The notes under the pieces were generated by a model. That model ran no database searches. It was given only the letters and a program-made list of their open reading frames with translations, and had not been told where the DNA came from. The translations under genes were made by a program, and so were the position numbers. Source: an uncultured Candidatus Saccharibacteria bacterium (lineage in GTDB: Bacteria; Patescibacteriota; Minisyncoccia; Phycocordibacterales; UBA9973). Taken from it: 64,000 nt of DNA. The stretch's first letter is position 1. The number at the start of each line of letters is the position of its first letter. Positions 2,108 through 49,515 of this stretch are shown here, in pieces. The stretch spans positions 24,910 to 88,909 of the forward strand of contig CAZADR010000003.1 in the NCBI GenBank assembly GCA_964484005.1, given 5' to 3'.

Positions 2108-2121
2108 AACTATTCCATCGT

Positions 2122-2152
2122 TTGACAAAGCTCTATATCCTTGTAATATAAA
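2122..2152 (+). promoter_or_regulatory. Sigma70-like promoter (TTGACA, 16-17 nt spacer, TAATAT) for the 2205-2642 cassette gene
   Basis: A consensus -35 TTGACA at 2122, then a 16-17 nt spacer and an A/T-rich -10. An AGGAG RBS lies 6 nt before the ATG at 2205. Confidence 0.5.
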
Positions 2153-2204
2153 CACGGGTTAGTTGTTTATATTAACCATTAATTTTCTCTAGAAAGGAGA
2201 AAAC

Positions 2205-2642
2205 ATGAAATTTGGTCTGATTGAAATGGATCGAACGATTCCTCCGACCTACCCCCTTTGGAAGAAAAGGTTGCTCCATCCTGAGCTCGAGTGTGCAGGC
2301 CCTGACGAGTACTACCTTTCGTCCGTTGGACTCTGGCTTCTTGAAGAGCAGAAGCAGAGAGAAGTCAAGGGAAACGTTGTTTTCAATTTCCTGGAAAGTG
2401 CTTCTTTGTTTAAGTCCTGCCTGAACTTGCAGGACGGACTTGCAATCCAGGGAAAGGGCATCATGCCTTTCCGGGAGCTTTTTGGTGGCATGGCTGTATT
2501 CCTCTGGGCCTCCGCCGTGGAGAGTCAGAACGAGCAGGATAGTGTCCCATACCTCTACGAGCAATGGGGTAAAGTTGAAATCGCCTGGCATTGGCTCGAT
2601 GATACCTGGGACCGCTGGCGCCCCGCGCTCATCTTCCAATAA
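2205..2642 (+). CDS. Hypothetical protein, 145 aa, Trp-rich; compositionally foreign (GC around 50%)
   Basis: Strong RBS (aaAGGAGaaaac-ATG), its own promoter and terminator, and codon usage unlike neighbouring genes. No recognisable domain. Confidence 0.6.
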   Translation: MKFGLIEMDRTIPPTYPLWKKRLLHPELECAGPDEYYLSSVGLWLLEEQKQREVKGNVVFNFLESASLFKSCLNLQDGLAIQGKGIMPFRELFGGMAVFLWASAVESQNEQDSVPYLYEQWGKVEIAWHWLDDTWDRWRPALIFQ

Positions 2643-2659
2643 TCTCAGCAGGCATCACA

Positions 2660-2708
2660 ATAGCCCCGAACGCAAAACATCGCGTTTGGGGCTATTTTAT
2701 ATTTTAGA
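2660..2708 (+). terminator. Rho-independent terminator
   Basis: About 14-bp stem (atagccccgaacgc/gcgtttggggctat), loop aaaacat, followed by ttttatatttt. Confidence 0.7.
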
Positions 2709-5058: not shown

Positions 5059-5152
5059 ATGGGCATAATTATAGCAGAATTAATGCGGGAGACCAAGTCT
5101 TTTTGGTCCTAGGGTTGCTTTTTTGAGAAATATCATATAATATAAGCCAAGT

Positions 5153-5488
5153 ATGACTAAAACGAAGAAAGATGAATTTGCAGTAATATTTACAGGCGGA
5201 AAGCAATACAAAGTCTCCGAGGGAGGCCTTGTTTCTATTGAGAAAATAAAGGGTGAATACAAAAAAGGGGACAAGTTGTCTTTTGATAAAGTTCTCTTGG
5301 TAGATGACGGCAAAGACACCACAATCGGTACACCTTATATAAAAGGAGCAAAAGTGGATGCTGAAATAGTAGAAATTGGCCGTGCTCGAAAAATATTAGT
5401 TGTAAAATACAAACAAAAATCCCGTTACCTCCGCCGAAACGGCCACCGCCAACCTTTCTTCAAAGTAAAAATAACTTCTATAAAATAA
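5153..5488 (+). CDS. rplU: 50S ribosomal protein L21
   Basis: 111 aa with typical L21 sequence (FAVIFTGGKQYKVSEG...VLLVDDG). Confidence 0.9.
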   Translation: MTKTKKDEFAVIFTGGKQYKVSEGGLVSIEKIKGEYKKGDKLSFDKVLLVDDGKDTTIGTPYIKGAKVDAEIVEIGRARKILVVKYKQKSRYLRRNGHRQPFFKVKITSIK

Positions 5489-5489
5489 A

Positions 5490-5526
5490 TTAAAAAGCCC
5501 CGCAATAAGCACGGGGCTTTTTGTTG
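5490..5526. terminator. Bidirectional rho-independent terminator between rplU and the 5551-5784 gene
   Basis: Hairpin aaagccccg-caataag-cacggggcttt with T-runs on both sides. Confidence 0.7.
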
Positions 5527-5550
5527 CGGGGCGAGATCGATGATCCGGCT

Positions 5551-5784
5551 CTATCTTGGCACGATGTTTCTTGCCCAGAGCTTGCCGTTGTACTTGCACT
5601 TGCTCGGCACGAAGAATACGTCACGGGTCGAGCAAGTTGCGTTGTAGTCGAAGCACATGTCATACAACACACTGGCCTCGTCGTCCTTGACTCGGTAGGT
5701 ATTGCCGTCGTTGGCAATGATTTCCATTACGAACTTGCTTGCGGTGAACTTGCGAAGAACCAGGTCCCCAGTTAACTGACACAT
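5551..5784 (-). CDS. Hypothetical small protein, 77 aa, 4 Cys; compositionally foreign (higher GC)
   Basis: A perfect AGGAGG RBS lies 7 nt upstream of the ATG. The promoter is consensus TTGACA/TATAAT. A terminator follows downstream. No recognisable domain. Confidence 0.6.
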   Translation of the reverse strand: MCQLTGDLVLRKFTASKFVMEIIANDGNTYRVKDDEASVLYDMCFDYNATCSTRDVFFVPSKCKYNGKLWARNIVPR

Positions 5785-5793
5785 TTAAAGACC

Positions 5794-5835
5794 CCTCCTA
5801 ATACACATTATACACCTTTAAGAATATTTTGTCAA
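5794..5835 (-). promoter_or_regulatory. Consensus sigma70 promoter (TTGACA, 16-17 nt spacer, TATAAT) plus AGGAGG RBS of the 5551-5784 gene
   Basis: On the minus strand: TTGACAaaatattctaaaggtgTATAATgtgtattAGGAGGggtctttaaATG. An 8-4-8 palindrome aaatagac-tatt-gtctattt lies just upstream at 5833-5852. Confidence 0.6.
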
Positions 5836-5840
5836 ATAGA

Positions 5841-6452
5841 CTATTGTCTATTTTTGAGAGCGTTTTTGAGAGTGTCGTTGTCTGAATATTCGAGTTCGGT
5901 GCCAGTGGAGAGGCCTTTGCCTAGAGAGGACACTTTTATATTTAATTTTTCTGCAGTGTTTGCGATTTGTTCTCGGACATAAGAATCTGTGTGGTCGCCT
6001 TGGGGACTAATAGAAAAAGCTAAGATAATCTCTTTTAAATCCGCACTCTTTTCAATCCTTTGTTTTAATTCTTCAATACGTACTCGGCTCTTGGTATTTT
6101 TCTCTACTATTGGTACTAGTCCACCCAAAATAAAATATTTTCCATGATAGACTCCGCTCTTGTTTATACTTTCTAAATCAGAATCTTTTTCTACTATCAA
6201 CAAAAGGGAAGAGTCGGTATTTGGACTGCCACAAATCTCACAAATATCTTTTTTGGTTTTACTACCGAGGAAAAATTTATAGCACTCTTTGCATTGAGAA
6301 ACTTCCTTTTTTAATTCTAAGACTAGCTTGGATAAATTGTTGGCATATTCTCCATTTCTAAAAATTAAAAAATAAACAAAACGCTTGGCTTGCCTTTCAC
6401 CAATACCAGGGAATTCTTTAAAAACTTCAGTTAATTTTTCGATAATGTCCAT
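5841..6452 (-). CDS. recR: Recombination protein RecR
   Basis: C4 zinc finger (CKECYKF...CEICGSP) followed by a Toprim domain. 203 aa. Confidence 0.9.
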   Translation of the reverse strand: MDIIEKLTEVFKEFPGIGERQAKRFVYFLIFRNGEYANNLSKLVLELKKEVSQCKECYKFFLGSKTKKDICEICGSPNTDSSLLLIVEKDSDLESINKSGVYHGKYFILGGLVPIVEKNTKSRVRIEELKQRIEKSADLKEIILAFSISPQGDHTDSYVREQIANTAEKLNIKVSSLGKGLSTGTELEYSDNDTLKNALKNRQ

Positions 6453-6459
6453 GTGTTAT

Positions 6460-6571
6460 GAATTCTAAAGTAGCTTCTCTCGAAAAGCAATCTATCTGGC
6501 GCTGTTGCGCCAGCGAACTGCTCGCGCCGTCGCGCTGTGCAAGGCTTTTCTCAAGAACTACTCTAGAATTC
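6460..6571. repeat. GC-rich structured element of about 110 bp, bounded by 14-bp terminal inverted repeats (gaattctaaagtag / ctactctagaattc)
   Basis: Outer inverted repeat matches 13/14. Inner inverted repeat (cttctctcgaaaagc / gcttttctcaagaa) matches 11/14. The GC-rich core has two hairpins (ctggcgc-tgtt-gcgccag and cagcg...cgctg). It overlaps the dnaB stop codon. Confidence 0.45.
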
Positions 6572-7957
6572 GTCAAGATCACCACCAATTTTTGATGGAG
6601 CAAATTCGCTGATGTTGCTCTTTTCAAGGTTCAAGAAGGTGGTGGTTTTTTCGTCGAAGTAGAGCTCTACTTTTCCGGTTGGACCATTGCGGTGTTTTTC
6701 AACTAAAATTTCAGCAATGTTTGTCTTTTCAGATTCATCTTTACCTTTATCTTCGCGGTGGATAAACATTACGACATCGGCGTCTTGTTCGATAGAACCA
6801 GAGTCTCGAAGGTCTGAAAGGCGAGGCTTGCCACCACGAGATTCCACAGCACGAGAAAGCTGAGAAAGAGCCAACACAGGCACATCTAGTTCTTTGGCGA
6901 GACTCTTTAGAGATCTTGAAATTTCAGTGACTTGGTTTACCATAGAATCATAATTTTTTGAAGTTGTCATGAGCTGTAAGTAGTCGACGACGATAAGGTC
7001 TAGTCCTTTTTCGGCTTTTATTCTACGAGACAAAGCTTTCATTCTTACTATAGAGTTTCCTGGAGTATCATCGATAAAGATTTGTGCCTTAGCAAGCTTG
7101 TCTAAAGAATCTCGAAGTTGTGAAAATTCTCTGTCTGAAGACAAGCGTCCGGTGCGCAAGTTCCAAGCATTGACTCTGGATTCTGCAGAGAGCATGCGGT
7201 CTACGAGTTGTTGAGAAGACATTTCTAGCGAGAATATTAAAATGGATTTTTCGTGTATTACTCCTGCCATACGGGCTACATCGAGGGCCAGAGTGGTTTT
7301 ACCCATCGAAGGTCTAGCAGCCAAAATAATAAGATCTGATTTTTGGAAACCTGAAAGCATTGTGTCTAGTTCTTTAAATCCACTAGGAAGACCGCGAAGC
7401 ATTCCTTTATTCTCGTGCAGTTTTTCCATTCGCTCATAAGCTTCAGGTAAGGCGTCTTTTAAATTTACATATTTTTGATTTTTAGGAGAGGATACAACGT
7501 GAAAGATTTTTTTCTCTGCCAAGTCTAAGATATCATCCATGTGGTCATCTCCTTCTTCAAAAGCAAGCTCGGAGACATAATCGGCTGCTTCAATCAAACT
7601 TCGGAGGACATATTTTTTTTGGACAATATCGGCGTAGTGTTTTACGTTTGTAGAAGAGGGAACGACATTTACAATCTCGGCGAGATATTGATTGCCACCA
7701 ATAGCTTCCAGTAATTTTTGTTCACTTAGTTTTGTAGAAAGGGAGAGCATATCTATCGGTTCATTCTTTACTGAAAGGTCGAGCATGGCACTGAAAATCA
7801 TTTTGTGTTTTTCAACATAGAAAGATTCAGCAGTCACCATATCCTCGACTTCATGCATCGCTTCTTTTCGGAGCATAATAGAACCAAGAACTGCTTGTTC
7901 GGATGGTATGCTTTGTGGAGGAATTCGAAGATTATTATTTTTTGCTATTTTTACCAT
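6563..7957 (-). CDS. dnaB: Replicative DNA helicase DnaB
   Basis: DnaB N-terminal domain. Walker A ARPSMGKTTLAL. RecA-like C-terminal domain. 464 aa. Confidence 0.92.
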   Translation of the reverse strand: MVKIAKNNNLRIPPQSIPSEQAVLGSIMLRKEAMHEVEDMVTAESFYVEKHKMIFSAMLDLSVKNEPIDMLSLSTKLSEQKLLEAIGGNQYLAEIVNVVPSSTNVKHYADIVQKKYVLRSLIEAADYVSELAFEEGDDHMDDILDLAEKKIFHVVSSPKNQKYVNLKDALPEAYERMEKLHENKGMLRGLPSGFKELDTMLSGFQKSDLIILAARPSMGKTTLALDVARMAGVIHEKSILIFSLEMSSQQLVDRMLSAESRVNAWNLRTGRLSSDREFSQLRDSLDKLAKAQIFIDDTPGNSIVRMKALSRRIKAEKGLDLIVVDYLQLMTTSKNYDSMVNQVTEISRSLKSLAKELDVPVLALSQLSRAVESRGGKPRLSDLRDSGSIEQDADVVMFIHREDKGKDESEKTNIAEILVEKHRNGPTGKVELYFDEKTTTFLNLEKSNISEFAPSKIGGDLDEF

Positions 7958-34675: not shown

Positions 34676-34709
34676 CAAAAAAGAAAAAGCAGACCTATGC
34701 CAGATCTGC
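34676..34709 (-). terminator. Rho-independent terminator of the 34695-34955 gene (its hairpin contains the stop codon)
   Basis: gcagatctggcataggtctgc hairpin followed by tttttcttttttt on the minus strand. Confidence 0.65.
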
Positions 34710-34955
34710 TTTGTTTTGAAAAACTTGAATGTCAGCTTCATTGATTTCCCAGTGTATGGTGCATCGATCCTCCTCATTGGGATCACAGCAGTCACACTCC
34801 CAGTCATCTTCCCACGCGAAAAATTTTCCGTTGGGGGTTTTGATGACATGTATGTCATGATTCCTGCCCTTGAGGATGCACTCAGCCAAGTAGCCTTCAC
34901 TCGGGTAATAGCCAGTCATCTGCCATTGCCTTGGAGCAATCTTTCCACAAGTCAT
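34695..34955 (-). CDS. Hypothetical Cys-rich small protein, 86 aa (CDCC...C cluster); compositionally foreign
   Basis: AGGAGG RBS 6 nt upstream of the ATG (aaAGGAGGctcttt-ATG). Its own promoter and terminator. GC is well above neighbouring genes. Confidence 0.6.
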   Translation of the reverse strand: MTCGKIAPRQWQMTGYYPSEGYLAECILKGRNHDIHVIKTPNGKFFAWEDDWECDCCDPNEEDRCTIHWEINEADIQVFQNKADLA

Positions 34956-35067: not shown

Positions 35068-35138
35068 TGGGAGATCGTCTAACGGTAGGACAGCGGCCTT
35101 TGAAGCCGTGAATCTTGGTTCGATTCCAAGTCTCCCAG
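35068..35138 (+). tRNA. tRNA-Gln (anticodon UUG)
   Basis: Cloverleaf: acceptor tgggaga/tctccca (U1-A72, as in bacterial tRNA-Gln), anticodon loop cTTTGaa, T-loop ttcgatt. No CCA encoded. Confidence 0.85.
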
Positions 35139-35160
35139 CAAATTCTGGTATAATAAAAAC

Positions 35161-49349: not shown

Positions 49350-49515
49350 GGAGATTGCAATAAGGAAAACGCGAGTACGCTTTCGGTCACGAGTATTTTT
49401 CTGTTGAAAAATCTCTCGATCCCGCCTCGCACCGTCGTGCTCTGGCTTTCGATTCCCTATCTCCACGCGCAGAAGAATACTCAGATAGCATTTAGCTATC
49501 TTGCGTATTTCTTTG
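49350..49515. ncRNA. GC-rich intergenic region of about 165 nt, candidate structured ncRNA (strand and identity unresolved)
   Basis: GC is far above the local background. There is no protein-coding potential (the best ORF is 34 aa). It ends with hairpin agatagc-attta-gctatct and abuts the tRNA-Trp 3' end. Confidence 0.3.

Follow-up and report, generated by a model that had tools for sequence, protein, structure and literature searches.

The 64-kb window analysed here, a stretch of contig CAZADR010000003.1 (assembly GCA_964484005.1) with ~36% GC, belongs to the genome of a Candidatus Nomurabacteria member of the Candidate Phyla Radiation (CPR). Between the convergent genes recR and rplU it carries a short GC-rich cassette whose single minus-strand open reading frame (ORF), referred to below as ORF77, encodes a 77-residue protein with four cysteines. 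The initial annotation of this DNA had described an ORF of this kind as part of a foreign-looking cassette, and the frame is present at the position given in Table 1, together with its signals and neighbours. An in-frame TAA abuts the ORF77 ATG (5784) on the 5' side. Beyond rplU lie an AI-2E transporter gene and then cysS on the minus strand.

Table 1. Features at the recR/rplU junction of the 64-kb window
Feature	Position	Strand	Remark
ORF77 coding sequence	5551-5784	-	ATG start, 77 aa, 4 Cys; orphan
-35 hexamer TTGACA	5830-5835	-	17-nt spacer to -10
-10 hexamer TATAAT	5807-5812	-	12/12 consensus promoter together with -35
Shine-Dalgarno AGGAGG	5794-5799	-	9 nt 5' of ORF77 ATG
Bidirectional intrinsic terminator	5492-5532	both	common to ORF77 and convergent rplU
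Inferred inserted segment (318 bp)	5523-5840	-	between recR stop and ancestral recR/rplU terminator; from empty-site comparison
8-4-8 palindrome AAATAGAC/GTCTATTT	5834-5853	both	overlaps recR stop (5841-5843) and 2 nt of -35
ORF84, antisense 84-aa ORF	5521-5775	+	TTG start in terminator; codon-aligned antisense to ORF77
rplU	5153-5488	+	convergent with ORF77 and recR
recR	5841-6452	-	directly upstream of cassette; stop TAG 5843-5841
dnaB	6563-7957	-	neighbour gene

The signals surrounding ORF77 are close to ideal. The near-perfect promoter of the initial annotation is a full match to the consensus, and the arrangement TTGACA-N16-18-TATAAT occurs a single time in the 64 kb, counting both strands, with 0.12 occurrences expected. 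At the distance customary between a -10 element and a start site, the transcript would begin near 5799-5802. The Shine-Dalgarno (SD) sequence ahead of the ATG is likewise real, although the 7-nt spacer first reported for it was wrong. On the distal side, a GC-rich hairpin with a T-run begins 18 nt past the ORF77 stop. The terminator consists of two overlapping hairpins, GCCCCG...CGGGGC and GCCCCGCAACAA...TTATTGCGGGGC, with predicted folding energies of -23.8 kcal/mol on the minus strand (z = -3.4) and -22.9 kcal/mol on the plus strand (z = -3.8), and it is bidirectional because a hairpin followed by a U-run is met in each direction.

By composition the cassette is foreign. A repeat of the composition analysis upheld the earlier statement that the gene is much richer in GC than its flanks, with values of 0.509 for ORF77, 0.372 for rplU and 0.346 for recR. 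Host ORFs of at least 200 aa have a mean GC of 0.361 +/- 0.027 and a maximum of 0.417, which places ORF77 5.5 standard deviations above host genes; just 0.4% of 234-nt windows have a GC of at least 0.51. Across the three codon positions, GC is 0.42/0.37/0.73 in ORF77 versus 0.46/0.33/0.29 in the host, and the three-base periodicity of the frame is pronounced (permutation p < 5e-5). An index resembling the codon adaptation index (CAI), built on host usage, gives 0.46 for ORF77 and 0.71 +/- 0.03 for host genes, and synonymous choice runs counter to host preference, with AAG for 6/6 Lys, GAC for 7/7 Asp and TTC for 5/5 Phe codons. Over the inserted segment GC averages 0.48, divided between an ORF part at 0.52 and a promoter/leader part at 0.29. 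Outside this strain, DNA similarity to the cassette is confined to the 3' end of recR.

Across Nomurabacteria as a lineage, the convergent junction of recR and rplU is a hot spot for insertions. Scans based on RecR recovered 160 loci (L002-L161) from Candidatus Nomurabacteria / Paceibacteria (CPR), at RecR identities of 69-84%, and the junction counts come from the 125 distinct ones in which recR and rplU are both present. The gene order, dnaB-recR and then convergent rplU-AI2E-cysS, is conserved across these 125. The gap between recR and rplU is at most 60 nt in 60 loci, essentially the bidirectional terminator alone; it measures 61-150 nt in 4 loci and 151-4757 bp, filled with unrelated cargo, in the remaining 61. 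At the empty sister sites the recR stop is followed directly by an A-run, a hairpin, a T-run and the rplU stop, in the form AAAAAGCCCCG... immediately after the recR stop. Since the same architecture is present at these empty sites, the terminator behind ORF77 is the site's own, and the bidirectional terminator of the initial annotation is therefore genuine but ancestral to the locus, not a part of the import. Clustering of the 92 ORFs from the 60 occupied gaps that were analysed gave 60 clusters with no relation to one another. Among the cargo with Pfam assignments are Y1-transposase-like (7 loci), PaaX/Cas2-like (5 loci) and inositol monophosphatase (5 loci) genes, along with DUF3750, HD hydrolases, adenylosuccinate lyase, SAICAR synthase and RidA; many cargo ORFs have no Pfam family at all. 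Conservation of the gene in sister genomes with host-like codons, which the initial annotation had named as evidence against its reading, is not seen. No sister genome carries ORF77: no relative is detected in the related loci even at a tblastn E <= 10. The cassette architecture does recur, because locus L151 contains a 352-bp GC-rich insert of like size in the same slot and orientation, with a GGGAGG SD and an 81-aa ORF unrelated to ORF77.

The SD sequence itself appears to mark imported genes in this lineage. Within the window, an SD of at least 4 nt is missing before the first ATG of 50 of 59 long ORFs, and in the related loci an SD of at least 5 nt precedes 2 of 400 core-gene starts (rplU, recR, dnaB, AI2E, cysS), so that AGGAGG is as atypical for this SD-poor genome as had been supposed. 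At the same threshold of at least 5 nt, an SD is found for 8 of 18 hot-spot cargo ORFs whose GC at third codon positions (GC3) is at least 0.5, versus 1 of 63 with GC3 below 0.4. Over 1.92 Mb, SD sequences accompany 9 of 20 ORFs whose GC3 exceeds the locus median by at least 0.25 and 91 of 1798 host-like ORFs (Fisher p = 3e-7). The apparently textbook signals of ORF77 would then be donor-type signals that arrived with the gene. On the host side, a TATAAT lies only 11 nt 5' of the rplU ATG (window 5100-5155, plus strand); taken with the almost complete lack of SD sequences, it points to very short or leaderless mRNAs in the host. A search for literature on SD use in Patescibacteria found nothing usable.

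Three ORFs are open across the GC-rich patch, and the NCBI, ENA and Logan records annotate ORF84 (P0006), on the plus strand, as the gene, with ORF77 (P0001) called on one short contig only. Positional GC (0.42/0.37/0.73) was considered as proof of minus-strand coding and discarded: it is symmetric between codon-aligned strands, as judged from validated foreign genes in related loci, in which GC1 and GC3 are both high. A strand classifier was instead built from sense/antisense codon log-odds, trained on 33 long ORFs from the related loci, all of GC 0.48 or more, and it reached a leave-one-out accuracy of 98.4% on 127 windows of 77 codons. ORF77 scores +13.9, close to the mean of true-sense windows (12.8 +/- 6.5) and at a value that no antisense window attains, whereas ORF84 scores -13.9, outside all 127 true-sense windows. 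That ORF84 is a real gene as publicly annotated and ORF77 its antisense shadow can draw on the agreement of the gene callers, on a CAI-like value of 0.56 that is closer to the host than the 0.46 of ORF77, on the failure of positional GC alone to separate the two frames, and on one of five single-sequence AlphaFold2 models that reaches a predicted local distance difference test (pLDDT) score of 58.9. The other four models, however, score 34-39, no homologues were returned by a database search, and neither promoter, SD, ATG nor GTG was found for ORF84, whose sole possible start is a TTG within the T-run of the rplU terminator; it is not plausible that chance put a 12/12 promoter, AGGAGG and an in-phase ATG on the opposite strand, and we regard this alternative as very improbable. 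The initial annotation had itself raised the plus-strand frame as possibly the expressed one, and what speaks for that is a set of automated gene calls. The classifier, the poor start signals of ORF84 and the minus-strand promoter, SD and ATG argue for coding on the minus strand, and the public plus-strand annotation is most likely on the wrong strand, perhaps because host-trained gene models favour frames with GC1 > GC3. An RNA gene in place of a protein gene might be considered here, as promoter- and terminator-bounded GC-rich islands in AT-rich genomes often encode RNAs and a transcript from this one would be ~300 nt. Such a structured non-coding RNA is still less credible than coding by ORF84: no Rfam covariance model matches at its gathering threshold, which dismisses the known RNA families, and at E <= 10 only generic terminator look-alikes appear; ARAGORN gives no match at the cassette; the RNA fold z-score is just -1.6 with the terminator included; and strong three-base periodicity and an SD-led ATG frame oppose it. 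An abrupt GC shift in metagenome-derived sequence could also betray an assembly chimera. Contigs from runs ERR3094293, ERR3094295 and ERR3094302, however, match the window at 100% identity for 1.2-4.0 kb and cross both junctions, out of seven contigs listed for the cassette in the index; the identity of separately assembled contigs from three runs across both junctions, joined to the coherent arrangement of the functional signals, makes a chimera barely conceivable. The source population looks clonal. Composition, own signals and strand classifier thus agree with the original description of a foreign, self-contained, minus-strand segment.

The ORF77 product (8.9 kDa, isoelectric point 8.4) has a grand average of hydropathicity (GRAVY) of -0.19, with cysteines at C2, C44, C51 and C62 and no histidine. 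Neither a signal peptide nor a hydrophobic segment was found in it, and the protein is soluble and mildly basic by prediction, and probably beta-rich. A word-index search of 5.8 billion clusters returned the query itself and nothing else. With phmmer against 1.84 billion representatives, the query was accompanied by four repeat sequences (P0002-P0005), in each of which single repeats of ~27 bits align to ORF77 residues 22-62. P0002, which looks like a translated tandem repeat, P0003 (SprB/CHU_C), P0004 (a propeller-like repeat) and P0005 (HYR_4C) were all set aside as homologues, the E-values arising from summed repeats, and the Pfam SprB model gives no match to ORF77 at E <= 1. Nor is there a match at E <= 1 in Pfam, PADLOC or NCBIfam; PHROGs yields two insignificant matches at E ~0.1, PDB sequences none at E <= 10, and neither tblastn of phages and plasmids nor pattern scans of viral and metagenome contigs produced one. 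The view that the product has no recognisable family therefore holds across protein, family, phage, plasmid and metagenome searches, none of which gave a credible match. Two domain assignments were entertained and rejected: a Hint/intein domain, suggested by the N-terminal MCQLTGD, fails on length (77 aa is too short) and on the missing histidine, which precludes a TxxH block, and a zinc ribbon fails on the cysteine spacing, which includes no CxxC pairs.

The initial annotation had further pointed to the palindrome beside the -35 element as a possible operator and to a small toxin, antitoxin or autoregulated regulator as the product. The palindrome is present, with a hairpin fold of -7.4 kcal/mol, but its significance is doubtful and a role as operator finds no support: the window contains 24 perfect inverted repeats with 8-nt arms versus 15 +/- 5 in Markov-1 simulations, which is chance frequency, and the left arm is recR coding sequence (AAT AGA CAA plus the stop codon) that recurs in nearly all sister genomes. 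The position of the palindrome against the -35 element, the small and basic character of ORF77 and its own strong predicted promoter do fit a toxin or regulator. A type II toxin-antitoxin module is nonetheless rejected for a lone gene with no partner ORF and no match in Pfam, PADLOC or NCBIfam, in which no helix-turn-helix (HTH), ribbon-helix-helix, AbrB or toxin family was recovered, and a type I system is rejected on the hydropathicity of the protein, its lack of a hydrophobic stretch, and the absence of any plus-strand (antisense) promoter-like site within 5490-5850. Taken as a whole, a toxin, antitoxin or regulator appears decidedly unlikely.

Comparison with known systems helps to place the cassette. 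The moron was reportedly first defined by Juhala et al. in 2000. In phage genomes, morons are independent transcription units added between prophage genes (PMC3594210). Like a moron, the cassette is a single small gene served by a sigma-70-type promoter of its own and by a factor-independent terminator (both predicted for ORF77), departs from its neighbours in composition (GC 0.51 vs 0.35-0.37; GC3 0.73 vs 0.29 in the host) and sits between otherwise adjacent genes; horizontal spread and a function that is often not known are also shared. Unlike a moron, it is flanked by chromosomal core genes (dnaB-recR, rplU, the AI-2E transporter gene and cysS), lacks a significant PHROG match and uses a terminator that is the host's own and ancestral to the site. 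The best fit is with small islets at chromosomal integration hot spots flanked by core genes, as reportedly described by Oliveira et al. in Nature Communications in 2017. In both, one interval receives differing accessory genes in different genomes, mostly without recognisable mobile-element machinery. The differences lie in the very small scale of the cassette (a single 77-aa ORF), in its CPR lineage and in the exact placement of insertions at a convergent junction, with a stop codon on one side and a bidirectional terminator on the other. Integron cassettes are likewise small units of one ORF in a slot that is used repeatedly, but they are normally promoterless and end in attC near an integrase and attI, whereas ORF77 comes with a promoter. 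A repeat search of 5400-5950, in which no dedicated attC model was run, showed no imperfect inverted repeat resembling attC, and the flanking core genes include no integrase; with the terminator and the palindrome at the recR stop as the sole inverted repeats, an integron gene cassette is rejected. An insertion sequence or a miniature inverted-repeat transposable element (MITE) is likewise rejected, as no direct or terminal inverted repeats bound 5523-5840 in the same search. ORF77 also resembles ORFan and anti-defence-like genes of mobile elements, by analogy only, in being short, homologue-free, strongly expressed by prediction and unameliorated; it differs from them in that no aca-like HTH gene adjoins it, in its lack of a mobile-element context and in the absence of a PADLOC match.

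Other parts of the window hold units of related appearance. A second cassette ("cassette 1", 2110-2700, plus strand) has the same architecture, with a TTTGACA -35 element, an AAGGAG SD and a terminator near 2660-2695, and its 145-aa ORF (2205-2642, plus strand; GC 0.52) has no Pfam family. It occupies the convergent agmatinase-like/cysS junction, which is itself variable, with inserts of 535-1901 bp in 4 of 10 syntenic loci. Relatives of cassette 1 exist in other Nomurabacteria at 47% identity (L076, two copies) and ~27% (L048 and L068), the latter two also downstream of cysS. ORF86 (34695-34955, minus strand), an SD-led, Cys-rich ORF of 86 aa with a CDCC motif and GC ~0.46, adjoins tRNA-Gln (35068-35139); AAAGGAGG ends 6-7 nt before its ATG, and a terminator-like hairpin follows. 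It matches no Pfam family and is unrelated to ORF77. A common element in ORF77 and the other cassettes was sought by alignment and rejected, as only generic TTTGACA and SD motifs emerged.

The spacer between dnaB and recR (6453-6562) contains a Y-shaped palindromic element of ~100-110 nt, built from a long outer stem plus a pair of inner hairpins, of which one has GCGC-GACG-GCGC at its core. Its minus-strand RNA folds at -46 kcal/mol (z = -5.1), with no Rfam match. Further copies are found at L094:5893-6000, L010:9893-10000 and L071:9883-10000, related copies at L029:10622-10736, L005:10622-10739 (opposite orientation), L051:6079-6202 and L044:3240-3345, and possible copies at 49380-49480 of the window and at L022:950-1050. 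Both inner hairpins show compensatory changes among the window, L094 and L010 copies, and the element is present in either orientation at differing intergenic sites, the recR/rplU slot included. It may be a MITE-like or repetitive extragenic palindrome (REP)-like element or an undescribed RNA. In ~30% of loci the same spacer is filled by other families of palindromic elements. At the recR/rplU slot, a ~210-aa protein, host-like in GC and weakly matched to Y1_Tnp (IS200-like or of the REP-associated tyrosine transposase (RAYT)-like type), occurs in seven loci in the same slot and orientation, the loci named being L008, L042, L046, L057, L063 and L079. By analogy with REP/RAYT-like systems, these genes might be linked to the palindromic elements.

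Given the observed anatomy, foreignness, uniqueness, strand and reproducible assembly of the cassette, and the hot spot in which it lies, we consider it likely that the cassette is a recently acquired, moron-like islet of a single gene (~318 bp) in a hot spot that is one of the convergent junctions at which Nomurabacteria gather accessory DNA again and again. Foreign DNA corresponding to 5523-5840 would have been inserted between the recR stop and a pre-existing recR/rplU terminator, its high GC3 and SD inherited from a donor of higher GC that uses SD sequences. Patescibacteria are naturally competent, and on that background the DNA may have entered by uptake, followed by illegitimate or homology-facilitated recombination, and then have been kept at a site where insertion breaks no operon. 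In the host, the consensus sigma-70-type promoter would start an ORF77 mRNA with a leader of ~16-19 nt that bears AGGAGG; the SD would direct translation of ORF77, and the terminator that also serves rplU would end transcription. ORF77 may in addition be transcribed by read-through from dnaB-recR, as no strong terminator lies in between. Both the recency of the event and the use of promoter and SD in this host are suggested by these features.

Several points weigh against a recently acquired, actively expressed islet. Expression of ORF77 and its protein are predictions from sequence alone, and the 64-kb window includes no 16S rRNA gene from which the host anti-SD could be read. The scans recovered no close strain whose site is empty (best RecR identity 84%), so that the insertion boundaries and age derive from distant relatives only; neither a target-site duplication, terminal inverted repeats (in the 5400-5950 repeat search) nor an integrase was detected. 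GC1 of ORF77 (0.42) is below the 0.58-0.66 of validated foreign genes from related loci, and an amino-acid make-up like that of an AT-rich genome combined with GC-rich synonymous sites is an odd combination. Homologues and sequence variants of ORF77, which could serve as a handle on purifying selection, are lacking. The structure prediction that the initial annotation had proposed could be obtained, yet the single-sequence AlphaFold2 model reaches a pLDDT of just 43.8, too low for a meaningful fold search, as is the best ORF84 score, and provides no usable fold. This low confidence would also suit a cassette that is expressed yet functionless, a transient passenger on its way to loss with no role for ORF77 in the host. 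Consistent with such a passenger are the singleton status of ORF77 among ~15 billion proteins, its wholly unameliorated codon usage and the rapid turnover of cargo in the slot, with 60 unrelated clusters in as many occupied gaps; the intact state of ORF77, complete with ideal promoter, SD, ATG and terminator, speaks against it, as does the cost that a strongly expressed useless protein should impose in so small a genome. We hold this reading to be possible, though clearly short of probable. The best guess for ORF77, although of low probability, is a dispensable accessory protein from the phage/plasmid pool, active for instance in conflict with phage or host; the odds of a neutral, transient passenger are no lower, and nothing in the analysis separates passenger from functional accessory gene. 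Quite improbable, and the most far-reaching, is that ORF77 is the first member of an unsampled family of small effectors that contain Cys and are used by a CPR episymbiont against phages or its host, together with an unrecognised mechanism of hairpin-directed gene capture at convergent terminators in Nomurabacteria. Its targets would include the recR/rplU and cysS/agmatinase terminators, and the Y1 (HUH) transposase-like genes and palindromic elements of these slots might participate.

Taken alone, the islet that we favour is genuine, yet as a recent horizontal gene transfer it is rather ordinary. More value attaches to the hot spot, the SD-plus-GC3 signature and the wrong-strand annotation than to ORF77 itself. 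These observations point to ongoing import of genes from SD-using donors of higher GC into a reduced, essentially SD-less CPR genome, in which GC3 and SD together provide a simple marker of recent acquisitions in this lineage. Wrong-strand calls by host-trained gene callers are probably systematic for foreign genes in AT-rich genomes. The recR/rplU convergent terminator, finally, could serve as a natural neutral site for Patescibacteria genetics.

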